Shown: positions 1-27,487, counted from the stretch's first letter. The stretch: 64,000 nt of DNA from an uncultured Myxococcaceae bacterium (GCA_964635635.1 CAZWPE010000001.1:639020-703019), one strand, 5' to 3'. Translations and numbers: made by a program. Notes: generated from the sequence alone by a model not told the origin.

Positions 1-508
1 GTGCCATCTGCTTAATCGCTTCTGGCAAATTTTTAAGCAGCTCTTGCCCGGGCGCAAAAACAACCAACAAACCTTCTGGCGGTCCATATGCGTCAGGCTG
101 ATCTTTAGAAATCGAAACTTCATTTCGAAGAAGTTCAAGCTTAAGCGCTTCTTTGGAATTAAGCTTATAGCCAGCTTCAACTTTAGCCTCTAGTTGCTCA
201 GATTCTTTTTGTGCAGTTTCCTGTGTAGAGCCATAACCTAACAGAAACTCAAGAAAATCACTGAGTTTTCCTTCTGGAAGCAATGACTGCGCGACAGTCT
301 TAATCGGTTCAATTAAAGCTGTCGTTGTATCTTCAATCAAACGCTCAAATGAACTTTTGGACTTTGGTTTGACTTCAACCCGAAAAGGATCCGGAGCCTC
401 AGACCTAAATACCGACAATCCACCAGCTGATATATTCAGCGATACGGCAAAGCTCAGAATTAGAAAAATCCTAGATTTCAAACCCAAACGCACTATATCC
501 GTGTTCAT
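1..508 (-). CDS. Partial CDS (N-terminal part; continues past window start) of a secreted hypothetical protein. ATG ~506-508, predicted signal peptide MNTDIVRLGLKSRIFLILSFAVSLNISAGG; overlaps the 3' end of mvk in another frame.
   Basis: Hand translation of the minus strand gives an open frame from ATG (~508) to the window edge with a K/R-hydrophobic-AxA-like N-terminus. Not in the ORF track because it is truncated by the window edge. Confidence 0.35.
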   Translation of the reverse strand, partial: MNTDIVRLGLKSRIFLILSFAVSLNISAGGLSVFRSEAPDPFRVEVKPKSKSSFERLIEDTTTALIEPIKTVAQSLLPEGKLSDFLEFLLGYGSTQETAQKESEQLEAKVEAGYKLNSKEALKLELLRNEVSISKDQPDAYGPPEGLLVVFAPGQELLKNLPEAIKQMA

Positions 509-1337
509 TGAATGTCTCTACTAACTGATTATTCGAATGACACAAGGCAATCACACAACCACCCCCACCTGCACCAGTGAGTTTAGCTCCAAAAGCACCA
601 TTTGAATTCGCAATCTCACATAAACGATCGAGCTCAGATGTTGATACGCCGAGCCGGCCAAGAAGCTGATGGTTTTCATTCATCAACCGTCCTATCGTCG
701 AAAGTTCACCCTCTTCTATGGCTGTCCGCATATGATGCGTCAGCTGACCAATCTCTTCAAAAATTCTCGTTACGGAAACTCGGTCTGATTCTAGAAGTTG
801 TTTGACAGCCTGAACAGCTTTTAATGTGCCTCCGTGGGGTCTAGAGACTGCAACCACTATCGGAAGTCTGGCTGGGCAAGATATTCGTTCAGCTTGTCCT
901 TTTTGAAACCAAATCATGCCTTCTTTCGCAATCACCGTGTGATCCACCCCAGAGGGGTTGCCGTGAAAAATCTTTTCAAGTTCAAGCGCCATTTTTGCAA
1001 TCTCGACTGGTGTTTGGGTTTCACCAAAATGATCAAGAATCGCGCGAATCAATCCAACAGAAAGTGCTGCAGAGCTACCTAGACCACAGCCTCCTGGGAT
1101 TTCGCTTTTTATGTTAAACTGCAGTTGCAAAATCCTAGGACCAAGCATCTGGGCAAGGCGCTCGATTAAAATCCCCCCTACCCCACTTTGCCAAAGGGGG
1201 GGAAATTGAAACCCTGGCGTATCAGATTTGCAGGCTTCCACTGATACAAATCGCGGAATCGTCGATGCGATAGCTGGGTAGCCATACACTACCGAATGCT
1301 CACCAGCTAAAATAATTTTTCCAAGTGCACGCGCCAT
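471..1337 (-). CDS. mvk: Mevalonate kinase (GHMP kinase family)
   Basis: 288 aa. N-terminal LGKIILAGEHSVVYG, GHMP motif GGCGLGSSAA, and C-terminal KLTGAGGGGCVIAL are the three canonical MVK motifs. Start overlaps the HMGR stop. Confidence 0.85.
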   Translation of the reverse strand: MARALGKIILAGEHSVVYGYPAIASTIPRFVSVEACKSDTPGFQFPPLWQSGVGGILIERLAQMLGPRILQLQFNIKSEIPGGCGLGSSAALSVGLIRAILDHFGETQTPVEIAKMALELEKIFHGNPSGVDHTVIAKEGMIWFQKGQAERISCPARLPIVVAVSRPHGGTLKAVQAVKQLLESDRVSVTRIFEEIGQLTHHMRTAIEEGELSTIGRLMNENHQLLGRLGVSTSELDRLCEIANSNGAFGAKLTGAGGGGCVIALCHSNNQLVETFNEHGYSAFGFEI

Positions 1338-2470
1338 TAAACCTGCTTTCGGTGGTGAAGAGCCATGTGGCCCGCTTGAATTCCCTCAGCTGCGAGAGCC
1401 CGCATTGCCGCAATATTTTGCGCAAGACCTACGCTCGCAATCAAACCTGATAATTGCTTCGCGCTTTTACCAAATTCACCAAGCAATTCAAGACAAGCCT
1501 GAACTGTTGGGTGTGCTTTTGTTACGCCGCCAACAACTCCAATCGCCATTGGCAATGCAATGCGAGCTTTGAGAACTTGGTGAGTATCATCAAGCTCATA
1601 GTGCGTGAGCGGCCCGTAGCCTCCGGGCTGCACAGCAGCATAGGCATGCGCCCCAGCTTCCACAGCACGCCAGTCATTGCCTGTGGCAATCACGACAGCA
1701 TCGACACCATTCATCACACCCTTATTGTGCGTGCAGGCTCGATAAGGGTCCAATCGCGCAAACTCATAACCCAGAACCATGCGCTCCGCGATTTGACGGC
1801 CATTGTCTTTGGCTGCATCGTTTGCCAGCGCTCTATAGGGAATTTCACATGAAGAACGCGCCAAACGTTCGTCACTTAAGTTAGATAAAATTTTAAATCC
1901 GACAGAGGCACCCGTTAACACTGAAATATCTGGAGCAAGACCTTCCATCATCGTATTAATTGCATTTGCCCCCATGGCATCACGGCAATCAATTCGAACT
2001 TCCACAACACCCATCAAACCACTCAAAGCCTTGAAACAAATCCTAAGACAGCCGCCGCCTCGGGATGGCAAACTGCCTGCAAGTTGATTTGCCTTCGCAA
2101 TCAATTGAAGCTCATGTGAACTAATAATATCTGCCACGCGTTCCCAATCACTGGCGCCCGTCAATTGAATTTGGCCCATCATGACGGGTTCATTCACTTC
2201 GGTCTTAAAGCCGCCTGTCAATGAAGCCAACTTTGCCATATGACTTGCAGCAGCAATCACAGACGGTTCTTCGATTGCCATCGGAATCCACACAGGTTTC
2301 CCATCAATCATAAAATGACAGGCTACGCCGAGAGGAAGTTGCATTGTGCCAACTAAATTCTCAACCATATCGTCAGCTTGCTTCAATTCAAGCTTGGCAT
2401 CCATGGAAACAGGCAAGCGTCCACGTCGTTCATCAATCGACAACGAATAAAAATTAGAAAAATCAGGCAT
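1337..2470 (-). CDS. mvaA: Hydroxymethylglutaryl-CoA reductase, class II (degradative/NAD(P)H type)
   Basis: 377 aa. VENLVG (ENVIG-like), DAMGANAINTM and GTVGG-like IGVVGG motifs. Translationally coupled to mvk and to the upstream IMPDH-like gene (8-nt overlap). Confidence 0.88.
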   Translation of the reverse strand: MPDFSNFYSLSIDERRGRLPVSMDAKLELKQADDMVENLVGTMQLPLGVACHFMIDGKPVWIPMAIEEPSVIAAASHMAKLASLTGGFKTEVNEPVMMGQIQLTGASDWERVADIISSHELQLIAKANQLAGSLPSRGGGCLRICFKALSGLMGVVEVRIDCRDAMGANAINTMMEGLAPDISVLTGASVGFKILSNLSDERLARSSCEIPYRALANDAAKDNGRQIAERMVLGYEFARLDPYRACTHNKGVMNGVDAVVIATGNDWRAVEAGAHAYAAVQPGGYGPLTHYELDDTHQVLKARIALPMAIGVVGGVTKAHPTVQACLELLGEFGKSAKQLSGLIASVGLAQNIAAMRALAAEGIQAGHMALHHRKQV

Positions 2471-3527
2471 TATGGTTCAAACTCTCTTCAACACCGGAAA
2501 TATCATGTACATGGCTTTCTCTGAGACCGGCTGAAGTCATTCGAACAAACTCTGCGTTTTCACGCAAGGCCTTTAAATTGGCTGCACCCAAATATCCCAT
2601 ACCTGCCCTAAGACCTCCCACAAGCTGGAAAATCACAGATTCAAGCGTCCCGCGATACGGAGTCAGACCGGCAACACCTTCCGGAACGAGTTTTTTAACA
2701 TCCTTCACTGAAGCTTGACCGTAGCGATCTTTGCTCCCTCGGGCCATGGCTTTGGCACTGCCCATGCCGCGGTAGTTCTTCCAAAGCTTGCCGCTATGCT
2801 CTATCACTTCGCCAGGTGATTCCGCTGTTCCTGCCAGCAAAGAACCAAGCATCACAGCATCTGCCCCTGCAGCAAGCGCTTTGACAATATCTCCAGAATG
2901 CTGAATACCGCCGTCCGCAATCAGTCCGATACCTGCTGGGCGGGTCACACTCGCCACATCTAAAATCGCAGACAACTGCGGGACCCCTACCCCCGCAACA
3001 ATGCGAGTAGTGCAAATCGACCCTGGACCAACACCCACTTTCACAACATCAACACCTGCGTCCATCAAAGCCTGAGCTGCTTTTGCTGTTGCTATATTTC
3101 CGCCAACAATCACGTGTGTTGGGTATCGTTTCTTAAGCCATGCCACAGCATCAAGTACCCCTTTGGAGTGCCCATGTGCAGTATCAACCACCAGCATTTT
3201 GACGCCGGCTTGAACCAAAGCTTCTGCCCGCGCCTCCAGTTCTGGCCCTGGACCCACGGCAGCAGCTACACAACCTATCGTTTCAGAGACTTCAAACGCC
3301 TGTTCAGGAATACTCAAGTTTTTGTGAATCACTCCAAGTCCACCGAGCTCTCCCATTGCGGTAGCCAAACGAGACTCTGTCACGGTATCCATGGCCGCAG
3401 ACAGAATAGGAATCCCTAATTCTAACCCTAGGGCTAGGCTAGCATTGGTTTCTACCTGAGTAGGCAATACTTCGGAGTAAGCAGGGAGCAACAATACATC
3501 TTGGAAAGTCAGTGCTTGTCTGAACAT
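2463..3527 (-). CDS. IMP dehydrogenase / GMP reductase family protein lacking the CBS (Bateman) subdomain
   Basis: 354 aa. N-terminal [32 protein letters not shown], catalytic-Cys loop [11 protein letters not shown], and [25 protein letters not shown]. The segment where IMPDH normally carries two CBS domains is absent. Confidence 0.75.
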
Positions 3528-3557
3528 TTCCCCCCACTACTGTATAAACACCAACTT

Positions 3558-4574
3558 TCAAACCCATAAACGCTGAACGCGCTCTGAAATTCCAGTCATG
3601 ACTTCATAATCAATCGTGCCACACATCTCAGCGATTTCAGGAATACTCATGAACGTGATGTCATCTCCCACTTTACAATCCACATCTGTCACGTCGAGTG
3701 TTATTAAATCCATCGACACCCTACCAATCATAGGTGCCTTAGAGCCATTCACCCAGGCATAACCCTGGTTCGACAATGCGCGCAGGATGCCATCCGCGTA
3801 CCCGCCCCTCACGACAGCAAGCCGGGTATCTCGCTTGGCAGTCCAGGTTTTGTCATACCCGACCCCAGTGCCAACTCGAATCGTTTTAAGCAGGGTCACC
3901 GGTGCAGTGAGAGACATGACAGAATCATAAAGCGCAATTCCTGGCCTTACCCAGGTTTCAATCCCAGGATATCGCGTCACATGCCCACTCAATATGGCTG
4001 AGCTTTTGGCTGTATGAATCACTTTTGGCGTGAGTCCTGCTTCCTGAAATTCTTGAAGTGAAGATTCAAATCGCTGAATCTGCAGGGGTGTTTCTGCGTC
4101 TGAAAAATGTGTACTGAGACCTTCCAGGGTCAATTTATGTTCCACTCGATTCCAAGCAGCAATTAAATCAGCCACCTGCGTCCACAAACAACCACCTCGT
4201 GACATCCCCGTATCAACGTCAATATGGACGGCTGCTGTCTTTTCCAACCGACACAATGCTTCAAACTCCGCAATCGATGATATCATGGGCGTAATATTAG
4301 CATTCACAATACGTTCAGCCGTCCAACTTAGCCCTGCACCAGACATTAACAAAATCTGCGCTTTGATGCCCGCACCACGCAAAGCCTCCGCCTCTTCAAT
4401 CGTTGCAACACCAAATTTATCAACACCCAATTCTTCAAAAAATCGCGCAACCGCAAGAAAACCATGCCCATAGGCATTGGCTTTAATCATTACAACCAAC
4501 CCGCACCCGGGTGCCAATTGAAGAATCCGATCATAATTCGAACGGAAAATATGAGCATTAATTAGAGCTTTCAT
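3558..4574 (-). CDS. alr: Alanine racemase
   Basis: 338 aa. PLP-lysine motif VMIKANAYGHG and typical alr length and architecture. Confidence 0.9.
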   Translation of the reverse strand: MKALINAHIFRSNYDRILQLAPGCGLVVMIKANAYGHGFLAVARFFEELGVDKFGVATIEEAEALRGAGIKAQILLMSGAGLSWTAERIVNANITPMISSIAEFEALCRLEKTAAVHIDVDTGMSRGGCLWTQVADLIAAWNRVEHKLTLEGLSTHFSDAETPLQIQRFESSLQEFQEAGLTPKVIHTAKSSAILSGHVTRYPGIETWVRPGIALYDSVMSLTAPVTLLKTIRVGTGVGYDKTWTAKRDTRLAVVRGGYADGILRALSNQGYAWVNGSKAPMIGRVSMDLITLDVTDVDCKVGDDITFMSIPEIAEMCGTIDYEVMTGISERVQRLWV

Positions 4575-5494
4575 ATTGAGTTAAGCAGCAACCTAAAAGG
4601 CTCATCCTTTGATGCCATATCCATACCTTGAGAAACAAGTCTACTCACTTGAGCTTTATCACGCTTCAAAAATTCCGCAACTTCAGTAACACTTCTTGCA
4701 CTTACCATAACTGCAGCGGTTGAAAGCAGTCTTCTCGCCATCACCAAGTCTTGTCTTCTGGATAAGCTTGACAGCATCCCAGTGTTTACATTGAGCAACA
4801 AGGCTACACGTTTTGCGAGTGCAACCAATGACAAACGTTTTCGGCGTGGTTCTTTCTTTTGAGCAATTACCAGCATAGGCTCTACAGGTTCTTCGATATC
4901 AAGAGCTGCAGATTCTACAAAACGTGCAAAAGCTTTGCGAGAAACAGTCGACAGCTCTGAGAATACTTCAAAAACTTGTTCTGACTGCAGATTACCATTC
5001 CAAGGGGTATCCAGTCCCAAATAAGCCCTGTGCGAACTCCAAGGATAGTGTTCAGCTCTATTCACGACTCCTTTTCGAACGGGCCACAGATGAATATTTC
5101 TCAAAGCTTCTAAAATTTGTTCTTCTGTCAAAACATAAGACTCAAATCTGGCCTGAAATAGAGGCCCGTGACGTTGGTATTTATGATTCAGCCTGAGCGT
5201 ATGACTTCCATGAATACGCTGCATCATTCGGGCAAGTGACAACTGCGTAGGCTTTACCAGCAAACGAAGTTCTTCTGGATGGAGACAAAAACCATAAACC
5301 TGTATAACATCTTGTCGTGAGAGATCAGCCAACAAACTTAAATAACCTTCAAAATCTTGAGATTCATAAAACAGCTTATTCCCGCTTCCAGGCTTGGCAG
5401 AAATGAGATGAGGCTGGCCCATTTGAGTCACGCGAGCTTGTCTAGGCACAGACAAAACCCCCGGGTTGATGAAATAAAGGACATGAGCCCCCAA
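4571..5494 (-). CDS. Y1 (HUH) transposase-like (COG1943 / IS200-like, REP-associated tyrosine transposase (RAYT)-like) protein fused to a C-terminal DnaA domain-IV-like HTH. Probable true start at the internal Met (coordinate 5422).
   Basis: 307 aa. HYPWSSHRAY motif typical of COG1943 transposase-like proteins. C-terminal RRQDLVMARRLLSTAAVMVSARSVTEVAEFLKRDKAQVSRLV resembles the DnaA C-terminal DNA-binding domain. 4-nt overlap with the alr start. Confidence 0.5.
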   Translation of the reverse strand: MGAHVLYFINPGVLSVPRQARVTQMGQPHLISAKPGSGNKLFYESQDFEGYLSLLADLSRQDVIQVYGFCLHPEELRLLVKPTQLSLARMMQRIHGSHTLRLNHKYQRHGPLFQARFESYVLTEEQILEALRNIHLWPVRKGVVNRAEHYPWSSHRAYLGLDTPWNGNLQSEQVFEVFSELSTVSRKAFARFVESAALDIEEPVEPMLVIAQKKEPRRKRLSLVALAKRVALLLNVNTGMLSSLSRRQDLVMARRLLSTAAVMVSARSVTEVAEFLKRDKAQVSRLVSQGMDMASKDEPFRLLLNSI

Positions 5495-6283
5495 CTTGCA
5501 CAGCGCATTGAAGCTTTGTCGCGCAGCAAACTTAATTCATTCCATGTTGATCCTTTTGGATTGGATCCTGACAGCGTTAAGCCTTACGCACCGCTGGCAC
5601 ACTGGCTGTATACAAAATATTTTCGATGCAAGGTTTATGGAAAAGCCAATATACCGACAGGGCGTGCATTGGTTATTGCAAATCATTCGGGTCAGCTGCC
5701 TTTTGATGGACTCATGATAGCCATGGCTTTCATGCTAGAAGCAAAGGAACCTAGGCTTCTCAGAGGCATGGCCGAACGCTGGAGCGCTGAACTGCCTTTT
5801 ATTAGCTCATTATTTGCCAGAACCGGAACCGTGGTAGGCGACCCAAATGTGTGCCGAGATCTTCTGGAAAACGATGAAGCCATTTTGGCCTTTCCAGAAG
5901 GTGTCCGAGGCATCTCTAAGCTTTTTAAGAATCGCTATCGTCTAGAGGCCTTTGGGACTGGGTTCATGAAATTAGCGCTTCAAACCCGTTCCCCCATCAT
6001 ACCAGTTGCTGTGATTGGCGCAGAGGAACAAGCACCCTCAATCGCGAACTTCTCGAAACTTGGCAATCTACTGGGGGCCCCTGGTTTGCCGGTGATTTTC
6101 CCCCAAATCCTACCCATTCCATTACCTGTAAGATACCGGATTTACATTGGAAAGCCCTTGAAGTTTAATCCCGAAGACCATAAAAATGACCATCTAATCA
6201 CTGCCTATACGGACCAAGTCCAATGTAAAATTCAAGGCATGATTAATCACGGGCTTAAAGTTCGTAAGCATATCTTCTGGTAA
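5483..6283 (+). CDS. Lysophospholipid / 1-acyl-sn-glycerol-3-phosphate acyltransferase family protein (PlsC-like)
   Basis: HX4D acyltransferase motif ANHSGQLPFDG and PEGVRG motif. The ORF-track start (5357) overlaps the divergent gene; the Met at 5483 is the likely start. Confidence 0.75.
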   Translation: MSPQLAQRIEALSRSKLNSFHVDPFGLDPDSVKPYAPLAHWLYTKYFRCKVYGKANIPTGRALVIANHSGQLPFDGLMIAMAFMLEAKEPRLLRGMAERWSAELPFISSLFARTGTVVGDPNVCRDLLENDEAILAFPEGVRGISKLFKNRYRLEAFGTGFMKLALQTRSPIIPVAVIGAEEQAPSIANFSKLGNLLGAPGLPVIFPQILPIPLPVRYRIYIGKPLKFNPEDHKNDHLITAYTDQVQCKIQGMINHGLKVRKHIFW

Positions 6284-6290
6284 GCAGGTA

Positions 6291-6325
6291 TTTGACATTG
6301 GACCCAAAACCCCCTATGCAGGGTT
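6291..6325 (+). promoter_or_regulatory. Candidate sigma70-type promoter (TTGACA-17-TATGCA) upstream of rpmF
   Basis: ttgacattggacccaaaaccccctatgca followed by an AAGGAG SD 9 nt before the rpmF ATG. Confidence 0.25.
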
Positions 6326-6350
6326 GAAGTTATTTTGAAGGAGTTTTCCC

Positions 6351-6536
6351 ATGCCAGTACCTTATGGACGTAAAAGCCGCAGCAAGAGCCGTATGCAACG
6401 AGCTGCCAATATGCGCTACACCGCAAAGCCATACCAGCACTGCCCTAATTGCAACGAGCCTAAGGCTCCGCATCATGTCTGTGGTAAATGTGGACATTAT
6501 GCTGGCAAGGCTGTGTTTAAGATCGAAGAAAATTAA
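6351..6536 (+). CDS. rpmF: 50S ribosomal protein L32
   Basis: 61 aa. MPVPYGRKSRSKSRMQRA...CPNCNEPKAPHHVCGKCGHYAGK matches the L32 N-terminus and zinc-ribbon pattern. AAGGAG RBS. Confidence 0.9.
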   Translation: MPVPYGRKSRSKSRMQRAANMRYTAKPYQHCPNCNEPKAPHHVCGKCGHYAGKAVFKIEEN

Positions 6537-6591
6537 CCGACTCCTCTAAAGATCGGATTCATAAAGTCTCAAAGCTTCGCATACTCTGCGA

Positions 6592-7983
6592 ATGTTTTTG
6601 AGGCTTTTTCTTTTCCTACTCGCCATAACATCGTCATTGCGAGGAGGCGTAGCCGACGCGGCAATCCACTGCAATGTTTTGATTTTAGGTGCCGGGCCCG
6701 GGGGCGTCCATACTGCTTACCAGCTTTCAAAATTACCTAATCAAAATATTTGTGTCGTTGAAAAAGAAGACCATCTGGGTGGAAGACTTTTTGACGTCGC
6801 ACTGGATCCAACCCACCCTCAATGGGTCTATGGCATGGGTGGCCTTCGGGTAATGGAGTCTCAAAAAAATGTCTTGAATCTGGCCAAAGAAATCGGTGTT
6901 GAACTTGAATATGCGCCTTACAAAGACACACTAATTAATACGCGTGGTATTTTTGGGGCAGATTCTGGAAGTATTGCCAAGCAAGCTTACCCGCTTGTTC
7001 AAATCAGCGAAGATGATTTGTACAAAAAATTACTGACCAGCCCTGAGCGTGCCAATGCCAAAAAATATCCCAGCATACGCTCCTACATGCAAAGCGTAAT
7101 TGGCGCTGAAGCACAAACTTTTTTACATGATGTCTCTCGTTTTCGAGCAGAGTTTGAGGCTCCTATCGATGTACGTTCTTATTTGGATTATATGGACGAA
7201 GAAATGGAAACCTGTTGCAATGCCTACTACCCAACGGGTGGCATGTCCGCATTTGTTTATAAAATGGCAGATCACGCGCGTTCTCGGGGTGTTCGTTTCT
7301 TTAGTTCAGAACCTGCCATAAGCATCCACAAAGCTTTTGGACTCTATCAGGTCAAAACGCCACATTATGTTTTCGAGGGTCAAAAATTGGTGATTGCAAT
7401 TAACGCCCAAGGCTTCAAATACGTCGGTGGAGATATCGCTCGGCGAATTCAATCACAGAGACAGTTTCAAGATATACTCGGCATCAAAGTCGTGACTGTC
7501 GCACAACAATTTCCAAACGCCTGGTGGCAGAATACCAATATCAGACGTGCTTGGACCAATGAGCATTGCCTCAATGCGCTCGAAATTCCCCTGAACACCT
7601 ATGCCGTACAGCAGCGTGTCATGCGCAGTGTATATGATGATGATATGCGCTGTGTCTCATTTTGGGAAAATACTTATCGCCATTTTGGACTAAAAGGCGT
7701 TGAAACTGAAATCATGAAGGGCTTGAAGCACCTCTTTTCTGGGGCTCATATCCCGTGGCCATCAAACACAGTGATTCAATTTTGGCCAGCTGCTTGGTAC
7801 TACTTGCGGGCCGGTACTCCTTTTAGCAATCGTGAGATTGCAGAGTGGGCTGTGGAGCCGCTACCAGGTGAAGATGTTTCACTGGTTGGAGATTCTTACT
7901 ATATTCAGCGTTCCGGCTGGAGCGATGCGGCTTATAAATCTTCGATGAATACCTTAAAGAGGCGATTTGGGATGGAAAATTAG
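6592..7983 (+). CDS. Secreted FAD-dependent amine oxidase / NAD(P)-binding oxidoreductase family protein
   Basis: 463 aa. N-terminal signal peptide, then Rossmann dinucleotide motif VLILGAGPGGVHTAYQLSK. Confidence 0.6.
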   Translation: MFLRLFLFLLAITSSLRGGVADAAIHCNVLILGAGPGGVHTAYQLSKLPNQNICVVEKEDHLGGRLFDVALDPTHPQWVYGMGGLRVMESQKNVLNLAKEIGVELEYAPYKDTLINTRGIFGADSGSIAKQAYPLVQISEDDLYKKLLTSPERANAKKYPSIRSYMQSVIGAEAQTFLHDVSRFRAEFEAPIDVRSYLDYMDEEMETCCNAYYPTGGMSAFVYKMADHARSRGVRFFSSEPAISIHKAFGLYQVKTPHYVFEGQKLVIAINAQGFKYVGGDIARRIQSQRQFQDILGIKVVTVAQQFPNAWWQNTNIRRAWTNEHCLNALEIPLNTYAVQQRVMRSVYDDDMRCVSFWENTYRHFGLKGVETEIMKGLKHLFSGAHIPWPSNTVIQFWPAAWYYLRAGTPFSNREIAEWAVEPLPGEDVSLVGDSYYIQRSGWSDAAYKSSMNTLKRRFGMEN

Positions 7984-9909
7984 GAAATTAAGAGTATTCT
8001 CAGCCCTGCTCAAGGTGTCTCGACGTTTTTTAGCCTGCCCATCAGATAACGTTTCCGGCAAAAATTTGTTCAACTCAAGAAGTGCTAAGTTCGCTTCAGA
8101 GTTCCCCTGATACTCTTTTAAACCCTTTAAAACAGCAGCATGTCTGCGACCATATTCACCCAACGAGCCTAAGTCAGTTTGAGGTCCAGCATAAAGTTCT
8201 CCTATGCTCGACCAATTGTCTAGAGTTAAATCTCTTTGTTCTGGATCAGCTTGTTTGAACTCAACCAGCTCCTCTCTCATTTGCTCAATCCGTTCATCAC
8301 AAGCAGTTAAAAAATTGATTCCAAGGTGTTCATTATCTTGAGATGTAAAAATCTCGGAGTTTTTCATAGATGGACTTTCTGCTTTTCTCCACATTTGCTT
8401 AATTAAATTCTGCGCCTCTTCCAGACTCAATTCTCTATCCACTATCAATGGAACCGAAGCCACACGAACCCTGGGTCCATCCATCAATACCAATGTACGT
8501 CTAAGTTTCAATTTAGACTTCTTCTCTGACGTTGGAGCTTCTTCAACTATCCATCCTGCATGCCGATTAAACATCCCTGGTTCGTCCAGAATCATCCAAA
8601 ATGGTTTCGAATCTAAAATACCCAGCTGTTTACGCAAATAAGCATTAGCCGATTGAAAATCAGGATCCTCAATCTTCTTTCTGGAAAATGCAGCCTTGTT
8701 TTTATTCCACCTGTTCATCGTCCCTGAACTCATAATCTCAGGCATAAATGGGAGATCCGGGAAACCATCTGTATGGAATTGAGTATTAATAGAACTTCGC
8801 TGTTGAAATGCAGCTCCTATTTGCGACAATTCTGCATCCTCTGCCTCTTGAGTCAACATTAGAATTTCTGCACCAGCAGCCATAATTTCTTTCGCACCGG
8901 GTTTGCCTTTAGTTACTGTTCTTATCCACTCAATAGCCTGAGGATTATCTGCTAAAAATTTTCCAAATTTTTGTTTAGTTGTTTCTGACCAACTGAATGT
9001 AGGCCCTAGAAATGAAACTATATTTTTAAGCTCCTCATTAAGAAACCACACTTTCAGAGCCTCAGCGTGCTTCGTATCAGCACTTCTAAGCCCAAACCAA
9101 GTTGACTTTCTAAGATGGACATCAGGACGATCTCTTTCGATAATTTCAATTGCTTCCTGGAGCGTCTTGCCCTGATATTTCATTAAGTACGCCGCTAAAA
9201 CAGTCGGGCTCCGACCAACACCGCTTTTGCAATGCAAATAAACAGGGCGGGTATCTTTAGGATTAGTCAGGGCCTGATGCAAAGCCTCAACACCCCTGTT
9301 TATTTCATCAGGCTTCATGCCAACATTGTCTTGAGACTCAACAATCGTAGCTTCTGCACGCATTGCTGGATTCATGTTTTCGGCTTCCCAGTGCTCTAGA
9401 ATTGCAACACATTTGAATGCAGGCCTTCTATCCTGCTGTACGGTGCCTATAGATGGAAGTTCTTCCCAACCACCTGGGATATCAGCTCCTTTCCCCCACT
9501 GCTTTTCTCCCTTCTGATCTGGGATCATTCCCAAATAAAGCTTCCTGCTGTTTTCATCATTTGAGTATTTAATCTGATTAAAAGCTGAGCCTGAAACACC
9601 TGCCGTGCCTTTTGTGTTTGCCTTACCTGCTTTGGATAGCATAAAGGTTCTACGGAACCATAATGCAGTTTTGTAGTAGGCTTGCTTATACCAACTTGTC
9701 TCGGTAACTTCTGAATGCCGATCAGACTGAGTAAAGACATCCGACGTATCGCTCATCAGATAAGCAGAATCTCCCCGCTTTAAAGAACTATAATTTTCAG
9801 TTCTATCCATACTTGTCGGTTCGGTTCTTGGCGTAATTGGCAACTTAACATCGCTCATAATATCCCGAAGTCTATCATCCAATTGTCCTAGGAAGCATGC
9901 ATGAGCCAA
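7954..9909 (-). CDS. Large protein with a dual-specificity / tyrosine phosphatase domain (CX5R active site)
   Basis: 651 aa. VYLHCKSGVGRSPTVLAAYLM is a canonical HCxxGxxRS/T PTP/DSP P-loop. The rest has no recognisable family. 30-nt convergent overlap with the amine-oxidase gene. Confidence 0.6.
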   Translation of the reverse strand: MAHACFLGQLDDRLRDIMSDVKLPITPRTEPTSMDRTENYSSLKRGDSAYLMSDTSDVFTQSDRHSEVTETSWYKQAYYKTALWFRRTFMLSKAGKANTKGTAGVSGSAFNQIKYSNDENSRKLYLGMIPDQKGEKQWGKGADIPGGWEELPSIGTVQQDRRPAFKCVAILEHWEAENMNPAMRAEATIVESQDNVGMKPDEINRGVEALHQALTNPKDTRPVYLHCKSGVGRSPTVLAAYLMKYQGKTLQEAIEIIERDRPDVHLRKSTWFGLRSADTKHAEALKVWFLNEELKNIVSFLGPTFSWSETTKQKFGKFLADNPQAIEWIRTVTKGKPGAKEIMAAGAEILMLTQEAEDAELSQIGAAFQQRSSINTQFHTDGFPDLPFMPEIMSSGTMNRWNKNKAAFSRKKIEDPDFQSANAYLRKQLGILDSKPFWMILDEPGMFNRHAGWIVEEAPTSEKKSKLKLRRTLVLMDGPRVRVASVPLIVDRELSLEEAQNLIKQMWRKAESPSMKNSEIFTSQDNEHLGINFLTACDERIEQMREELVEFKQADPEQRDLTLDNWSSIGELYAGPQTDLGSLGEYGRRHAAVLKGLKEYQGNSEANLALLELNKFLPETLSDGQAKKRRDTLSRAENTLNFLIFHPKSPL

Positions 9910-9941
9910 AATTGTTGTTGCTGTGACAATAAGTATCTAGC

Positions 9942-10487
9942 ATGAGAAGCTTATTCTTCGCGTTCTGGGCTTGCACCCTTCTGGCCCAAAAAGATCCTTT
10001 AAAATCGGTTAAAGCCTTAGACCTGAAACGCTATATGGGCCTATGGCATGAAGTAGCTAGGCTCCCCAACTCATTTGAGCGCAACTGCGAAAAAGCAACT
10101 GCAGAGTATTTCCTCAATGATGATGGAACTGTCCGAGTTTTGAATACCTGCGTCAAAGAAAATGGATACACCAAAAACATTAAAGGCAGGGCCTATATCC
10201 CAGACCCAGACTACCCTGCTCAGTTAAAAGTTAACTTTGTACCTAAGTGGCTCAGTTGGACAGGTTTGGGTTGGGGTGACTATTGGGTAATCGATCTAGA
10301 TTCCGATTACCAATGGGCTGTGGTGAGCGAGCCCTCCCGCGAATATTTGTGGATTTTAAGCCGATCCCCCCAAATGCCGCCCGAAGTATTTGGCGGTATT
10401 GTGAATAGACTGAAAGCGAAGCAATTCGATCTAACGCACCTCTTGATTTCGCCAGACTCTAAAGCTCTCAGCCGCTTGCTCAAGTAA
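9942..10487 (+). CDS. blc: Bacterial lipocalin (outer-membrane lipoprotein Blc)
   Basis: 181 aa. LDLKRYMGLWHEVARLPNSFE, DYWVIDLDSDYQWAVVSEPSREYLWILSR match the Blc signature regions. Confidence 0.85.
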   Translation: MRSLFFAFWACTLLAQKDPLKSVKALDLKRYMGLWHEVARLPNSFERNCEKATAEYFLNDDGTVRVLNTCVKENGYTKNIKGRAYIPDPDYPAQLKVNFVPKWLSWTGLGWGDYWVIDLDSDYQWAVVSEPSREYLWILSRSPQMPPEVFGGIVNRLKAKQFDLTHLLISPDSKALSRLLK

Positions 10488-12593: not shown

Positions 12594-13214
12594 ATGAACT
12601 GGTCGTGGATTTCACAGTCTGGCCCCACAGCACTCGCAGTTTTGGGCCTCCTTTTGGCCTTCTCTGTGGTGAGTTGGTCCATTATTTTGCTCAAGCTTTT
12701 AGCCCTGCGCAAAGCCAGCAAATCTTCGGTGGAATTCACGGACATGTTCTGGAAAGTCAGACGTCTGGATCAAGTTTTCGAAGAATCCAGACGTTTTGAT
12801 CAAAGTCCCTTGGCGCAAGTTTTTCGTCAGGGATATCAAGAGTCCCAAAGCACAAGTGATGAACTTTCTGTTCAACATGCTTTACGTAAAGCTTCTGCTC
12901 AGCAGATGTCCGAACTTGAAAGCTTGGTGCCTTTTTTGGCTACGGTAGGCTCTACCTCACCTTTTATTGGTTTGTTTGGAACTGTTGTCGGAATCATGGC
13001 TTCGTTCCAAGAAATTGGACTTAAAGGTTCTGCAAGTTTAGCAACCGTCGCACCAGGAATTGCTGAAGCACTGGTTGCAACAGCTGCTGGTTTGGTTGCT
13101 GCAATACCTGCAGTGATTGCTTACAACTATTTTTCAAATCGCATTCGAGTGTTGGCTGGAGACATAGACACCTTCTCGAATGACTTTCTCAACATCATTC
13201 GCCGAGGTAAGTAG
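12594..13214 (+). CDS. MotA/TolQ/ExbB proton-channel family protein (orphan; no ExbD/TolR partner adjacent)
   Basis: Three TM segments and family signature SPFIGLFGTVVGIMASFQEI...AIPAVIAYNYF. ATG at 12594, 8 nt after AGGAG. Stop overlaps the uppS start. Confidence 0.75.
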   Translation: MNWSWISQSGPTALAVLGLLLAFSVVSWSIILLKLLALRKASKSSVEFTDMFWKVRRLDQVFEESRRFDQSPLAQVFRQGYQESQSTSDELSVQHALRKASAQQMSELESLVPFLATVGSTSPFIGLFGTVVGIMASFQEIGLKGSASLATVAPGIAEALVATAAGLVAAIPAVIAYNYFSNRIRVLAGDIDTFSNDFLNIIRRGK

Positions 13215-13912
13215 TGCTTCCTGAGCACGTGGCGATCGTCATGGACGGCAATGGCCGTTGGGCAAAAGCTCGAGGTCTTTCGCGTCTTGAAGGTCATCGT
13301 GCTGGCGTCAACAGTGCCACAGATATCGTGCGTTACTGCGGTGAACTTGGCATTCGCTACCTTACGCTCTATGCATTCTCCTCTGAGAATTGGAAGCGCC
13401 CTGCTGAAGAAGTCATAGGAATTATGGATCTGCTGCGCGAGTATCTATCGCGCGATAGCAACGAACTTGTTCAAAAAGGGGTACGGATTCAAGTGATTGG
13501 GAAGTCTGAAAAACTTCCCTTTGCACTTCAAACAGCTCTCAAATCTCTGTGCGAGAAAACAAAGCTTGGCAATAAACTTATTTTAACGATTGCACTTTCA
13601 TATGGATCACGCGCAGAAATTGCTGAAGCTGCTAAAAAAATCGCCTGGGATACCTTAGAAGGACGTCTGGATCCTGAAAAGATAAGTGAAGAAGTCTTTG
13701 CAGGATACCTACAAACTACAGGTATTCCAGACCCAGATTTATTAATTCGAACCAGCGGCGAAAAACGCCTATCCAATTTCTTATTGTGGCAGCTCTCATA
13801 CACTGAACTTTATATAACTGAAACGCTTTGGCCAGATTTCAACAGGGCTTCACTTGATTTAGCCTTGGCAGACTATGCGCGCCGCGAGCGACGATTTGGA
13901 GACGCCTCATGA
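13214..13912 (+). CDS. uppS: Di-trans,poly-cis-undecaprenyl-diphosphate synthase
   Basis: HVAIVMDGNGRWAK, ENWKRP, RTSGEKRLSNFLLWQ motifs. Confidence 0.9.
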   Translation: MLPEHVAIVMDGNGRWAKARGLSRLEGHRAGVNSATDIVRYCGELGIRYLTLYAFSSENWKRPAEEVIGIMDLLREYLSRDSNELVQKGVRIQVIGKSEKLPFALQTALKSLCEKTKLGNKLILTIALSYGSRAEIAEAAKKIAWDTLEGRLDPEKISEEVFAGYLQTTGIPDPDLLIRTSGEKRLSNFLLWQLSYTELYITETLWPDFNRASLDLALADYARRERRFGDAS

Positions 13913-14565
13913 ATCTTTTTTTGCGTATTATTAGCGCACTTATACTGTTACCTGGTTTTCTAGGTCTGTTTTACTTAAGCGGCTGGCCCCTCATGGTTTT
14001 GCTCGGTTTTATGCTGGCAACGTGTCTTTATGAATATTGGCAGATGATCCGAAATGTCATTCCAGCGAAAGCTGGAATCCAGGCATGGACCCCAGCCTAC
14101 GCTGGGGTGACAATTGGTATTGCCTACATCACACTCGGCATTAGCTCCCTCTATTTTCTACGTGAAAAAGCTGGATTCGCTGCAATTTTATTGGTTTTGA
14201 TTGCCACCTGGTCCAATGATACTTTTGCCTACTTCGCCGGAAAAACCTTTGGGAAACACAAACTGGCCCCAAAAATCAGTCCTGGAAAAACCTGGGAAGG
14301 CTTCTTCGGTGGCGCTCTAGGCTCCATCTGTATGCCATTAATCCTTTCGAATTTCTTAATACCACTCAGTACAGCTCAAATTCTTGGCGTTGCAGTTCCA
14401 TGCATCGTGTTGGCACCAGCGGGTGATCTGATCGAAAGCTGGATTAAACGCCGGCATGGAGTGAAAGACTCTGGCAGTTTGTTACCTGGACACGGAGGTG
14501 TTTTGGATCGAATTGACGCCCTACTGCTGACAGGACCCTGGGCTTTGATCTACTTTATACTATGA
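13909..14565 (+). CDS. cdsA: Phosphatidate cytidylyltransferase, carrying an in-frame palindromic-element insertion (see repeat 14055..14112)
   Basis: DTFAYFAGKTFGKHKLAPKISPGKTWEGFFGG and GHGGVLDRIDALL motifs. 4-nt overlaps with uppS and the downstream gene. Confidence 0.9.
   Translation: MNLFLRIISALILLPGFLGLFYLSGWPLMVLLGFMLATCLYEYWQMIRNVIPAKAGIQAWTPAYAGVTIGIAYITLGISSLYFLREKAGFAAILLVLIATWSNDTFAYFAGKTFGKHKLAPKISPGKTWEGFFGGALGSICMPLILSNFLIPLSTAQILGVAVPCIVLAPAGDLIESWIKRRHGVKDSGSLLPGHGGVLDRIDALLLTGPWALIYFIL
14055..14112. repeat. REP/RPE-like palindromic element inserted in frame within cdsA (encodes NVIPAKAGIQAWTPAYAGVT)
   Basis: tgtcat-TCCAGCgaaaGCTGGA-atccaggcatgga-CCCCAGCctacGCTGGGG-tgaca. 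Two perfect stem-loops (6 and 7 bp) bounded by terminal inverted repeats tgtca/tgaca. ~57 bp = 19 codons, frame preserved. Confidence 0.6.
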
Positions 14566-22804: not shown

Positions 22805-23257
22805 TCAACTCATCCACATTAATCCTGCAACAACAATTCCTGCCAGAATATCGTCAAACATGATTCCAAATGGCCCCTTGATTTTGCGGTCTGCCCAGGA
22901 AATTGGCCAGGGTTTTAGGATATCAAACACACGAAACAAAATAAATGCGACAGCAATTGATGTGATGGTTGGCTCACAAAAAAGCGTTGCAAAACCCATG
23001 CCGGCTGCTTCATCAATCACAACTTCTTTGGGGTCATCGGATTCAAAGTGAGAACGCGAAATTGCCCAAATCCCGAGGGCAAATACAGCTAATGACACAA
23101 ATAGTCTGAGCAAAAAAGAAGCGCCACTTAAAACTAGGGGCGCCCATAAAATCGACGAAGCCAGAGACCCCCAAGTACCAGGCGCAAATGAAATGCGCCC
23201 GATGGAGCCCAGCGTACTAAGTTTCTGCGTTACGTCTGAGGAACGCAGGAATGTCAT
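22805..23257 (-). CDS. pgpA: Phosphatidylglycerophosphatase A
   Basis: [49 protein letters not shown] match PgpA motifs. Start set at internal Met (ORF track 23284). Overlaps the ftsZ 3' end. Confidence 0.8.
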
Positions 23258-24671
23258 ATTCGTCTTCTTTTGACTTTGAACCATGCATCGTTAAAGAAGC
23301 ATCTTCTTCGACAGGTGCCAACACAGGAATCTTCATTTCTGTCACAGGCCGAATTCCGGATGGCTGATCCCAACTCTGACGGATATAAGCTGGAATATCC
23401 TTCGATGGCTCCGGATGATGGCTTGGGAACATGCTCGGAACATGTGATGCCATTGGCGCAGCTGCAACAGGTGCAGGCTGTACAAATGGAGCTGGTTCCG
23501 GATGAATTGATGGAGCCATTGAGAATACTGGTTCTGGTGTCGGTGCAGGGTGAATCGAAGGGAATACCGGAGCGACTTCGAACGGAGCTGGAGTTTCAAC
23601 AGGAGCAGCAACTGCCGGAGGTTGATTAAACAATGGCCCTGGTGCCTGCATCGTTTCAATAGCAGCAGGAATTGATTTTTGAATCAGCTCTGGCTCTTTG
23701 AAAGTACTGCCCTTTGCACCCTCAAAACCCGTTGCAATCACGGTAATGGTCACTTCATCTTCGAGTTTTTCATCAACCACATAACCAAAGATGATATTCG
23801 CATCTTCGTGTGCAGCCTTAGTAATGAGCTCAATGGCTGAGTTGACTTCATGCAAGGTCAAAGACTTACCACCAGTCACATTGACCAGTATGCCCATGGC
23901 ACCATCCACAGAAACATCTTCAAGAAGTGGACTTGAAATCGCTTTCTGAGCTGCTTCCACTGCACGATTGTCACCCTTGCCCGAACCAATCCCCATGAGC
24001 GCCATACCTTGATCACTCATCACAGAAATAGCATCTGCAAAGTCTACATTCACAATACCTTGTTGGGTAATGATATCGCTGATTCCCTTCACAGCATTGA
24101 GCAATACTTGGTCAGCCATTTTGAATGCGTCAAGCATTGAGGTGTTAACATCGGCAAGTTGCAACAGACGATTGTTAGGCACAACAATCAAGGTATCAAC
24201 AGCAGCTTTTAAGGCTTCAACACCTGCTTCAGCAGATTTTCGGCGACGGTTACCTTCAAACAAGAAAGGCTTGGTGACAACACCTACGGTCAAAGCACCC
24301 AAACGCTGAGCAACATCTGCAATAATCGGAGCAGCGCCCGTTCCGGTACCACCACCCATACCAGCAGCAATAAACACCATGTCTGCACCGAGCAAAAGCT
24401 CTTCAATACGGTCCATGCTTTCTTTCGCAGCCGTGGCGCCTACTTCAGGCTTAGCGCCAGCTCCAAGACCCTTGGTACACCCCTGGCCAAGTTGAAGTTT
24501 CACGGGAGAGGCACTCATATCAAGCGCCTGACAGTCCGTGTTGGCTACAATAAACTCAACACCATGGATACCATGCTGAATCATATTGTTGACAGCATTT
24601 CCACCGCCACCACCTACGCCAACAACTTTAATTTTAGGACCTCTTTGTTGCATTTCATCAAATTCAATCAT
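23217..24671 (-). CDS. ftsZ: Cell division GTPase FtsZ, with Pro-rich C-terminal linker
   Basis: 484 aa. GGGTGTG tubulin signature, NTD (ANTDCQAL), C-terminal DIPAFLRR peptide. Confidence 0.95.
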
Positions 24672-24691
24672 TTCTCTCTGCCTCCCACCCT

Positions 24692-25924
24692 TTAAATCAT
24701 ATCCTGAATCCAGGCTTCCATTTTCTTTTTAACACGCAAATAAAAACTTTCGCCACTCAATCTCGCATACTTTTTCTCGCGAGCTGCGGCTTGATACAAA
24801 ACCAAACCTACTGCGGTTGCATAGATTGGGCTATTCACCACATCTAACAGGCCCCCAACCCCTCTCGGAGAGCCTCTGCGCACCGGAAGTCCCAACACAT
24901 GTTCTGCCACTTCAACCATTCCGGGAAGCAAAGCAGAACCACCCGTTAAGACCACACCCGAAGCCAACAATTCGCGAAATCCGATTCGATGAATTTCTCG
25001 AGCAACTAATTCGAAAATCTCTTCGACACGTGGCTCTAAAATATCGCCCAAAATTTGCCTGCGCAAAATTCGGTCTGGTCTTCCGCCAATACTAGGTACT
25101 TCGATAACTTCTTCTCTGCCTATCATTTTTGCACTTGCAGAGCCATAAGTTTTTTTAATTTCTTCAGCATTTTCTGCCGGAGTTCGAAGACCAACTGATA
25201 TATCATTTGTCAAATGCTGACCACCAATTGGAATTACCGACGTGTGCTGAATTGAACCATGACAAAACACGGCCACATCAGTTGTTCCGCCACCAATATC
25301 CACCAATGCGACTCCCAACTCTCGCTCATCTTCACTGAGTACTGCATAGGCGGAGGCTAACTGTTCCAAAACAACATCAGTCACTTCAAGACCACAACGC
25401 TCCGCGCATTTAATGATATTTTGAGCTGAGCTAATTGCGCCGGTCACCACATGAATTTTAGCTTCTAGCCTGGAACCAGACATGCCGAGCGGATCCCTAA
25501 TACCACCTTGACCATCCACAATAAATTCTTGAGGAAGCACATGCAAAATTTCTCGGTCTGTCGGGATTGAAAGCGCCTTAGCCGTATCAATCACGCGTTC
25601 GATATCGGCTTTTTTTACCTCGCCATCTTTAATTGCGATGACGGCCTGGCTGTTGATGCCCTGAATATGAGCACCCGCAATACCAGCACAGACACGGTGG
25701 ATTTTACATCCGGCCATCCGCTCAGCTTCTTCTAAAGCTTTCGCGATTGAAGCAACGGTCGACTCAATATTGATAACAACGCCTCTTTTAAGACCCTTCG
25801 AGGGACTGGTACCCACGCCAATAATATTCACACCTTCTGGACATAACTCAGCCACCACCACACCTATCTTGGTAGTTCCGATATCCAATCCGACGATCAA
25901 ATTATCGCGCTTAAACCTCGCCAT
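24692..25924 (-). CDS. ftsA: Cell division protein FtsA (actin-like ATPase)
   Basis: [30 protein letters not shown] motifs. Start at the Met 69 nt inside the ORF-track start (AAGGA SD 5 nt upstream), abutting the ftsQ stop. Confidence 0.9.
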
Positions 25925-25925
25925 A

Positions 25926-26612
25926 TCATCCTTTTTTGAAACGAACCGCAATCTGACCCCGTTTAAGATTGTCGTCAAGGTAGACGAAAGCAAGTTCAGC
26001 TGTTTTTGGACCTAAAGACTTCATTACACTTCTGAGTTTTTCCCACTGAACAGCAGCATTTGTTACTCCAATAATTACTTCAAGACCATTGACGAATAAA
26101 ACCTGCGCCTGCTCATGTGGCATCGTATGGACTTCCATTACCTTTCCACCTGGAAGACCTGCTGAAATATGAGCAGCTAAAAGCTGGGCCTGTTCAAGCC
26201 CTTGAATCAAAGGTAAAGACAACTCTTCTTCACTTTCAGCCGGCTTAAAGGCTACACCACCAGCATCTACCACCCATAATTTTCCCTGTTTAATAAGGCC
26301 CACAGGGATACGTTCAACAATATCAACCTGAAGTGTACTTGGCGGTTCCCTGCGAACACTGGCCGAAGCCACCCAAGGATGTCTTTCAGCCATGATTCGA
26401 ACACGGTTTAGATCAACACCATACAAAGGTTTACCAACCATATCTCGCAGATACACTTGAAGCTCTTCAGGCTTTGCATGAGCACCTGCATGAACACGAA
26501 TCGTCCGAATTGCCAGTGCTGAGCCCTCCGTGAGCCAAACATACAAAACAGGCACCAATACGCCGCCAGCGATTAAAGTAGACACTAATACTATTTGTCT
26601 TCGAATCCCCAA
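25926..26612 (-). CDS. ftsQ: Cell division protein FtsQ/DivIB (POTRA-containing)
   Basis: 228 aa. N-terminal TM then POTRA/FtsQ-like region. Position between murB and ftsA. Confidence 0.7.
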   Translation of the reverse strand: MGIRRQIVLVSTLIAGGVLVPVLYVWLTEGSALAIRTIRVHAGAHAKPEELQVYLRDMVGKPLYGVDLNRVRIMAERHPWVASASVRREPPSTLQVDIVERIPVGLIKQGKLWVVDAGGVAFKPAESEEELSLPLIQGLEQAQLLAAHISAGLPGGKVMEVHTMPHEQAQVLFVNGLEVIIGVTNAAVQWEKLRSVMKSLGPKTAELAFVYLDDNLKRGQIAVRFKKG

Positions 26613-27487
26613 TGCCTTACCTCATATTCCAATTGAATACCAAATTGATCATAAACTTTTTTACGCGCCAATTCACAAATTGCCAACATATCTTTTGAAC
26701 TTGCCTTATTGTAATTCAAAAAAAAGTTAGCATGTAGTTCAGAAATTCTGGCTCCACCTATTTGGGTTCCCTTAAGGCCACATGCCTCAATTAAGCGGCC
26801 TGCATAATCCTCTGGAGGATTTTTAAACATCGAGCCTGCCGAACGGAACTTAGGTTGAGTAGCTTTACGTTTTTTAGCGAGCTCCTGTGCTTCATGCAAA
26901 AGTTCTAATTTACGCTCAGGCTTTGGCTCTGGGTAATGCAAATAGGCTCTGCACAAAACAGCATTCGCAGGAAAATGGGTATTGCGGTACGAAAATCCCA
27001 TATCATCGTGACTGAGTTCAAGAGCGCCATTTTCTGTCATGGCCTCTACGCGAAGGACGACCTCGCCCAGCTCACCTTGACGAGTTCCAGCGTTCATTTT
27101 GAGTGCACCACCGACAGAGCCAGGAACGCCGCACCAACCGAGTGCTCGCTCCCAACCTAATTCCAATGCATGGCGGGTTAATTTGGGAAAAGAATAGGCA
27201 GCGCCCACAGAGATATCACGGCCATCTGGTGACATATGAATGCGCGTGAAGTCACCCGTCAAATGCACAACAACGCCGCGAACTCCAGAATCACTTACCA
27301 GCAAATTACTACCACCACCCAAGAAATAAACAGGCATTTTGGCAGATTTTGCCTCAGAAAGTACTTGATATAAATCAGTCTCGTTTTTAACCAGAGCCAA
27401 ATACTCCGCCGGCCCACCCATGTGGAGGGTTGTGTAGGGAGCCAAGGGCTCCTCTCTCAAAACCTCAACGCCTTCAAACACTTTCAA
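26591..27487 (-). CDS. murB: UDP-N-acetylenolpyruvoylglucosamine reductase
   Basis: 298 aa. FAD-binding YFLGGGSNLL motif and MurB C-terminal domain. Confidence 0.9.
   Translation of the reverse strand: MKVFEGVEVLREEPLAPYTTLHMGGPAEYLALVKNETDLYQVLSEAKSAKMPVYFLGGGSNLLVSDSGVRGVVVHLTGDFTRIHMSPDGRDISVGAAYSFPKLTRHALELGWERALGWCGVPGSVGGALKMNAGTRQGELGEVVLRVEAMTENGALELSHDDMGFSYRNTHFPANAVLCRAYLHYPEPKPERKLELLHEAQELAKKRKATQPKFRSAGSMFKNPPEDYAGRLIEACGLKGTQIGGARISELHANFFLNYNKASSKDMLAICELARKKVYDQFGIQLEYEVRHWGFEDK

Follow-up and report, generated by a model that had tools for sequence, protein, structure and literature searches.

A probable natural Bateman-less IMP dehydrogenase encoded in a conserved guaB-hmgR-mvk gene order of uncultured bacteria

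The DNA studied here is a 64,000-nucleotide (nt) stretch from an uncultured Myxococcaceae bacterium (GCA_964635635.1 CAZWPE010000001.1:639020-703019; the whole 64-kb stretch is called the window), and the subject is a 354-amino-acid (aa) protein encoded in it between an alanine racemase gene and two genes of the mevalonate pathway. This protein is most likely the organism's working housekeeping inosine monophosphate (IMP) dehydrogenase (IMPDH; GuaB), its regulatory domain having been lost and the position of its gene inherited. An initial annotation of the window had described an IMPDH/guanosine monophosphate (GMP) reductase-family gene with the catalytic Cys loop and the motif GGLGVIHKN and without CBS domains. 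That description stands, since both motifs are present and the CBS profile PF00571 finds no match in the protein. The annotation had also raised the prospect of a divergent enzyme function in this fold, against which the evidence below speaks.

Open reading frames (ORFs) were called and searched with Pfam and NCBIfam profiles and against the PDB, the domain scan taking in the five ORFs of the gene cluster and 56 further ORFs covering the rest of the window. The IMPDH profile PF00478 matched the 354-aa protein over its whole length (454 bits; protein residues 5 to 341, profile positions 1 to 345 of 345). Among the NCBIfam models, IMP_dehydrog ranked first (TIGR01302; 412 bits, in two stretches), followed by GuaB1/GMP reductase (242 bits), GuaC (213 bits), and GuaB3 (112 bits). 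The TIGR01302 score lies below that model's cut-off of 481.5 bits because the Bateman-region middle of the model is unmatched. The best IMPDH in the PDB was the engineered delta-CBS structure 5upy (414 bits, residues 3 to 352), while the best GMP reductase scored 272 bits. Identity was ∼60% to the solved delta-CBS IMPDHs and 60 to 65%, over the catalytic domain, to canonical GuaBs of unrelated phyla. Type 2 isopentenyl diphosphate (IPP) isomerase was also considered as the identity of the protein and rejected (TIGR02151, 21 bits versus 412 bits for IMPDH).

Conservation at the level of single residues, which was observed directly in alignments, points the same way. Of 98 columns that do not vary among 92 canonical GuaBs, the 354-aa protein keeps 94; two of the four lost columns lie at the edge of the deletion described below, one lies near the C terminus, and one is an Ala-to-Gly change. 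The motif GGLGVIHKN occupies residues 62 to 70 and the catalytic Cys loop residues 165 to 175, and Cys172 of this G-S-I-C-T-T loop is invariant both in the 15 members of the protein's clade and in the 92 canonical GuaBs. Asp205, Tyr252, Arg268, Tyr269, and Glu283 are likewise invariant in all 15 clade members. Arg268 and Tyr269, which lie in the flap sequence GSKDRYGQ, are invariant in the canonical GuaBs as well. Water activated by this Arg-Tyr flap dyad hydrolyzes the covalent intermediate, and the dyad tells an IMPDH apart from a GMP reductase (PMC10912719). From these sequences we infer the activity of the enzyme: IMP would be oxidized to xanthosine monophosphate with NAD+ via a covalent intermediate on Cys172, and this intermediate would be hydrolyzed by water that the Arg268-Tyr269 dyad activates.

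The absence of the Bateman (CBS-pair) module is also a direct observation. Aligned with 120 homologues, the 354-aa protein shows one large gap, which follows residue 85 and falls between HKN motif and AAAVG strand; it has 0 residues at the site where canonical GuaBs of 483 to 500 aa carry ∼120 to 135. Together with the lack of a PF00571 match, this indicates that the CBS domains are truly absent and were not overlooked. An assembly or frameshift artifact was considered as the cause and rejected, given an identical ORF in a separate Logan assembly record (L001, which may or may not come from an independent sample) and 14 related clusters of the same architecture. Nucleotides exert their allosteric control at the Bateman domain, which few IMPDHs naturally lack (PMC10912719); removal of the CBS domains alters most kinetic parameters of bacterial IMPDHs less than 2-fold (PMC4342496). 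Because the literature thus treats the module as dispensable for catalysis (PMC10912719, PMC4342496), its absence is compatible with membership in GuaB. The module appears to have been cleanly deleted at the point where crystallographers cut bacterial IMPDHs. Catalysis would then be normal, whereas allosteric control by adenine and guanine nucleotides, judging from published work on other IMPDHs, would be lost.

Comparison with known enzymes places the protein more closely. Like bacterial GuaB (PF00478; TIGR01302), it gives a full-length match to the (beta/alpha)8 catalytic domain and carries the Cys loop and the motifs KDRY, PEG, and ESHVHD; unlike bacterial GuaB, it is wholly missing the Bateman module. 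It aligns end to end (query residues 3 to 352, 380 to 414 bits) with the engineered delta-CBS IMPDHs 5upy, 4my1, 4q32, and 4fo4, and its chain is joined at the very place where the engineered delta-L constructs carry an artificial SGG linker (PMC4342496). Those proteins, however, are laboratory truncations, whereas the window protein carries a natural deletion that has become fixed across its clade, which numbers at least 15 protein clusters. Natural lack of the Bateman domain is reported for the IMPDHs of Borrelia burgdorferi (1eep, 404 aa) and Cryptosporidium parvum (3ffs, 400 aa) (PMC10912719), to which the window protein matches at 338 to 357 bits. These are not its closest relatives; they are ∼45 to 50 residues longer and, by their length, apparently retain some residues at the insertion site, of which none are left in the window protein.

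Trees were built by neighbor joining (NJ) with bootstrap, which is distance-based only, so that the number of domain losses read from them is provisional. The closest homologues of the 354-aa protein (344 to 354 aa, 65 to 93% identical) come from metagenome-assembled genomes (MAGs) named by their submitters as Myxococcaceae, Myxococcota, or Deltaproteobacteria bacterium, and the taxonomy used here is that of the submitters throughout. These short GuaBs form one clade (100% NJ bootstrap) on a short stem branch (0.066). Other CBS-less GuaBs of 365 to 368 aa are 70 to 77% identical to canonical GuaBs of 489 to 493 aa and only 57 to 67% identical to the window clade. They never group with the 344- to 354-aa clade or with each other (0% NJ bootstrap); the mixed group that they form with canonical 489- to 493-aa GuaBs has 75 to 82% NJ bootstrap. 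Because a Bateman module could hardly have been reinserted at that very site, these trees point to at least two independent losses of the module, and probably three or more. Outside the window clade, a contiguous GuaB match of ∼365 aa was also seen in a Rhodobiaceae MAG (L007, 10001-11095).

The gene for the 354-aa protein, referred to as guaB from here on, is the third of five head-to-tail ORFs on the minus strand between 471 and 5494, which encode a RAYT-like protein, alanine racemase (alr), the IMPDH, a class II 3-hydroxy-3-methylglutaryl coenzyme A reductase (HMGR; hmgR), and mevalonate kinase (mvk). The features of the cluster are as follows.

4571..5449, minus strand: RAYT-like gene, first gene of the cluster; likely start GTG at 5449, longest ORF to 5494
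3558..4574, minus strand: alanine racemase gene, alr; PF01168 and PF00842, TIGR00492 at 251 bits versus a cut-off of 168
3528..3557, minus strand: alr-guaB spacer of 30 nt; GGGGGG Shine-Dalgarno-like run 3 nt before the ATG, as read in the sequence
2463..3527, minus strand: guaB, predicted IMPDH catalytic domain without Bateman/CBS domains, 354 aa; PF00478 match as given above
2463..2470, minus strand: overlap of guaB stop and hmgR start, 8 nt, ATGCCTGA; junction read directly
1337..2470, minus strand: class II HMGR gene, 377 aa; PF00368 at 336 bits, TIGR00532 at 314 bits
1337..1337, minus strand: overlap of hmgR stop and mvk start, 1 nt, TAATG; junction read directly
471..1337, minus strand: mevalonate kinase gene, 288 aa; TIGR00549 at 251 bits, GHMP N- and C-terminal domains
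2..508, minus strand: ORF downstream of mvk, running off the window; no family match, hydrophobic N terminus KSRIFLILSFAVSLNISAGG

This order bears out the earlier placement of alr and a transposase-like gene upstream of the IMPDH-family gene. The tight coupling of mvk, hmgR, and guaB that had been described is also borne out, although its wording as "ATGA-type overlaps" is not: the two junctions are the 1-nt TAATG and the 8-nt ATGCCTGA, and the sole true ATGA overlap in the cluster is the 4-nt one between the RAYT-like stop and the alr start. A consensus scan of positions 1 to 6600 for promoters and terminators found no site in any intergenic gap of the cluster, the alr-guaB spacer included; compared with shuffled sequence, promoter counts were at or below expectation and terminator counts were within ∼1.6 standard deviations. 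Rfam and tRNA scans found no element within the cluster. Judging by their spacing, the genes of the cluster may be cotranscribed and translationally coupled.

The synteny of guaB, hmgR, and mvk (the triad) was then observed directly in related loci, here given L-numbers.

Window, L002, L003/L004, L089/L090, L091, L093/L094, and L098: CBS-less GuaB of 351 to 354 aa; guaB-hmgR-mvk
L087: CBS-less GuaB of 352 aa; guaB-mvk-polyprenyl synthase, no hmgR or alr in the cluster
L006: CBS-less GuaB of 344 aa; RAYT-like-alr-guaB only
L096 and L099: CBS-less GuaB of 365 to 367 aa, a second lineage; guaB-hmgR-mvk, with mdh and sdh upstream in L096
L178: canonical 490-aa GuaB with PF00571/CBS matches; guaB-hmgR-mvk with 14-nt and 4-nt overlaps, mdh upstream
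L097: CBS-less GuaB of 384 aa, more distant; guaB-guaA

Within the protein clade of the window GuaB, the triad is thus present in seven of nine distinct gene contexts. The 8-nt guaB/hmgR overlap recurs in L003, L089, L091, and L093 and measures 14 nt in L002, and the 1-nt hmgR/mvk overlap is kept in five relatives (TAATG; TAGTG in L093). In L093/L094 the triad is intact despite different upstream genes. The proteins of the second lineage, L096/L099, have diverged considerably from those of the window (identities of 61% for IMPDH, 54 to 56% for HMGR, and 43 to 45% for mvk). The HMGRs of the three triad-bearing lineages are 55 to 57% identical to each other, and none of the other class II HMGR loci tabulated in the metagenome scan exceeds 49% identity to that of the window. 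In L002, the closest relative (IMPDH 93% identical), alr and guaB are separated by an inserted gene for a 625-aa Ser/Thr protein kinase (8142-10019), with a 19-nt overlap at the guaB start; in L087 (10001-12963), the most divergent clade member, mvk and then the polyprenyl synthase gene directly follow guaB.

Because L178 carries the triad with a canonical, CBS-containing GuaB, the gene linkage is therefore older than the domain loss. Judging by these loci, the guaB-hmgR-mvk order is an inherited trait of a wider uncultured group and would predate the loss of the Bateman module; the triad order would have come first, and the module would have been lost later and more than once. The tight linkage of guaB with hmgR and mvk, downstream of alr and a probably domesticated RAYT-like gene, would in this sense be the ancestral gene order of an uncultured lineage. 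The initial annotation had counted such an order, if widespread and known in relatives, against a divergent function. It is widespread, being found in the clade and in sister lineages; as far as we found, no description of this order, conserved as it is down to overlapping stop and start codons, has been published. Separately, a canonical 491-aa GuaB (P0014) and a 410-aa HMGR related to that of the window (P0137) are each on a JGI contig of 3,894 bp. This is probably the same contig, their adjacency being circumstantial; if so, a canonical guaB would adjoin hmgR there as it does in L178.

Two background sets were used to gauge how common the pairing is. The first comprised 80 guaB loci of diverse bacteria, each taken with flanks of up to 10 kb and obtained by scanning a genome collection with the IMPDH protein; the matches listed were canonical GuaBs of other phyla, the back-translated peptide AAMDTVTE being universal, and no close relative of the 354-aa protein was among them. 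The second comprised 80 metagenomic class II HMGR loci, each taken with flanks of up to 6 kb and obtained with a trimmed HMGR alignment aimed at the clade and consisting mostly of distant class II HMGRs. None of the 80 guaB loci had an HMGR, mvk, alr, or RAYT-like gene nearby, and an IMPDH gene was near a class II HMGR gene at 2 of 80 loci, both of them close relatives of the window (L098 and L099). Colocation of a purine-branch enzyme with isoprenoid genes is therefore unusual, as had been noted at the outset. The pairing is not general to CBS-less IMPDHs, because distant CBS-less GuaBs occur elsewhere, beside guaA in L097 and beside unrelated genes in L095; on these comparisons it is a marker of the window lineage and not a feature of CBS-less IMPDHs as such. 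The two loci in question are a 384-aa CBS-less GuaB directly upstream of guaA (L097, 8001-10789) and a 375-aa CBS-less or CBS-reduced GuaB in an unrelated context on a 9.9-Mb contig of a high-GC genome (L095, 8001-9128).

Several points weigh against reading the protein as a housekeeping GuaB in an inherited position. The housekeeping role is one that we infer from a view limited to the 64-kb window, which holds no guaA or second guaB. The node joining all triad-bearing GuaBs has 26% bootstrap, by NJ only. Finally, the triad and its junction overlaps are kept across proteins that are 45 to 60% identical and are absent from the background loci, which is also compatible with selection for coexpression.

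This last point leads to the explanation that, after our own, survives best, although we consider it unlikely: that selection keeps the triad together by linking guanine-nucleotide synthesis to the mevalonate pathway, the protein still being an IMPDH. The link might be NADH, made by IMPDH and fed to an NADH-using class II HMGR, or it might be stoichiometric coexpression of growth-limiting steps toward GTP, bactoprenol, and D-alanine. Besides the persistence of the overlapping stop/start junctions at such divergence and the near absence of the pairing elsewhere, it would account for the intact triad of L093/L094 beside different upstream genes, and for L087, where guaB is followed by mvk and polyprenyl synthase even with no HMGR gene in the cluster. 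Among solved HMGRs the nearest are 6dio and 1qax, both class II, of which the latter, from Pseudomonas mevalonii, uses NAD(H), and the matching NCBIfam model is named "HMG_CoA_R_NAD, degradative." In addition, the presence of alr, uppS, and dcw genes in the window suggests that isoprenoids are used, among other things, for peptidoglycan synthesis. However, other neighbors are syntenic in the relatives as well (an acyltransferase gene and the RAYT-like gene and, downstream, genes for Omp85, phosphoglucomutase, and a type III secretion ATPase), so that the conservation of the triad is in large part explained by general synteny. The clade member L006 has guaB without adjacent hmgR or mvk, and an HMGR cluster (P0127) is named for the same organism as L006 and has the same longest contig figure, 528,051 bp. 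We know of no mechanism linking IMPDH to the mevalonate pathway. It is doubtful that the triad is a selected functional module of a possibly host-associated or predatory Myxococcota-affiliated group, with IMPDH coupled via NADH or by fixed-ratio cotranslation. Were it one, the repeated Bateman loss would represent GuaB freed from purine-nucleotide allostery once the operon sets its output.

It is far less probable that the IMPDH-fold protein has come to act on another substrate after losing the Bateman module, perhaps in isoprenoid metabolism, as the suggestion of a divergent function would have it. Such a change would fit the place of the gene beside hmgR and mvk and the unusual length of the protein, as well as the marginal match (TIGR02151, E = 1e−4, 21 bits) to type 2 IPP isomerase, a distantly related barrel. 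Nevertheless, every residue checked is conserved (the Cys loop, the Arg-Tyr dyad, and the other motif positions), as are 94 of 98 invariant columns; identity to GuaBs of unrelated phyla is 60 to 65%; the stem branch of the clade is short; and in a related lineage, L178, a canonical CBS-containing GuaB of 490 aa occupies the same operon position. These results argue against a divergent function in the IMPDH fold.

The chance that the protein is a GMP reductase of purine salvage (GuaC or GuaB1 type) is also very slight: CBS-less family members of ∼340 to 350 aa are usually GuaC, the length is near that of GuaC models (TIGR01305 has 343 positions), and GMP reductase models match at 211 to 242 bits, but IMPDH models and structures score 150 to 200 bits higher, the nearest relatives are canonical GuaBs, one CBS-less relative lies in a guaB-guaA arrangement, and the Arg268-Tyr269 dyad is invariant. 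The dyad serves the IMPDH-specific hydrolysis step and is not known from GuaC. Most likely, then, the protein is a housekeeping IMPDH that is naturally delta-CBS and is encoded in a mixed operon specific to its lineage, and nothing found here points to a new enzyme in the IMPDH fold.

The two mevalonate-pathway genes of the cluster have strong family assignments. The window HMGR exceeds the cut-off of its class II model (TIGR00532, cut-off 260), while the class I model TIGR00533 gives 51 bits, and the class II motifs EEPSV, DAMGAN, THNKG, GNDWRA, and GHMALH are all seen in its alignments. It matches 6dio at 325 bits and 1qax at 316 bits, keeping the class II motifs of both; however, these are 428 to 429 aa long versus 377 aa in the window, the N terminus of the window protein is ∼15 residues shorter, and its C-terminal tail is missing. 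The alignment reaches only residue 387 of the two structures, the window HMGR ending 4 residues past GHMALH, while 6dio and 1qax run ∼40 residues further. The short C terminus is common to the whole clade, and the HMGRs of the sister lineages are 393 to 410 aa. The mevalonate kinase model exceeds its cut-off of 163, with 63 bits for the phosphomevalonate kinase model, and the top PDB matches are all mevalonate kinases (best, 2oi2 at 120 bits).

In mevalonate clusters known from Gram-positive cocci and myxobacteria, mvk is found together with mvaD, PMK, and idi. The window is like these in that mvk and hmgR are adjacent and coupled, and it differs in having guaB and alr in the cluster instead. 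No ORF anywhere in the 64 kb was identified by the Pfam scans as hmgS, mvaD, PMK, idi, guaA, or a second guaB, in agreement with the earlier statement that the pathway is split. The ORF at 2-508 overlaps the 3′ end of mvk by 38 nt and is at least 306 aa long in L001. Because its N terminus is hydrophobic, secretion of its product is plausible; the gene after mvk differs between relatives, and this ORF is not conserved there.

The RAYT-like gene combines a degenerate IS200/RAYT-like N-terminal domain with a DnaA-C-like helix-turn-helix. All of its profile matches are below threshold (REP_Tyr_transpos, NF047646, 44 bits versus a cut-off of 80; Y1_Tnp, 18.5 bits versus 23; Bac_DnaA_C, 18.3 bits). 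In seven relatives, a RAYT-like gene (46 to 90% identical) begins at the equivalent GTG in the same place upstream of alr, or of guaB in L087. None of these seven has HxH at the expected HUH site, which was placed by eye and reads CLH(P/F)(E/N)EL(R/Q). The gene is syntenic in the relatives and is not repeated; it is probably domesticated and not a transposase. It is divergent from an acyltransferase gene on the plus strand (likely ATG at 5483), and the probable starts, 5449 and 5483, are 33 bp apart; any promoters therefore lie partly inside neighboring coding sequence.

Elsewhere in the window, large proteins with effector-like domains are encoded at 7954-9909, 30238-32559, 40722-42059, and 61451-62530 (all minus strand), with dual-specificity phosphatase, protein-kinase-like, patatin phospholipase, and Fic domains. 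In relatives (L002, L003, and L091), a type III secretion ATPase gene and a YscO-like gene lie 3 to 5 kb from the cluster. Together, the effector-like domains and the type III secretion genes suggest a host-associated or predatory lifestyle for this lineage of ∼45% GC; a literature search brought up nothing usable on Myxococcota lineages that combine type III secretion with mevalonate genes. The window also holds uppS and cdsA (13214-14565, plus strand) and a dcw cluster with ftsZ, ftsA, ftsQ, murB, murC, and murG (23217-29905, minus strand), and the organism therefore makes peptidoglycan. Bactoprenol would be one obvious consumer of the mevalonate pathway, and alr would feed the same product, peptidoglycan.

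Recognizing the 354-aa protein as a probable GuaB removes a false lead toward a new function in the IMPDH fold. The window lineage and its sisters would enlarge the small set of IMPDHs that naturally lack the Bateman domain (PMC10912719), as natural counterparts of the delta-CBS constructs of structural work. The guaB-hmgR-mvk order offers a cheap marker for this group of uncultured bacteria, and the natural Bateman-less clade could be used to ask what it costs a cell when GuaB loses nucleotide allostery.

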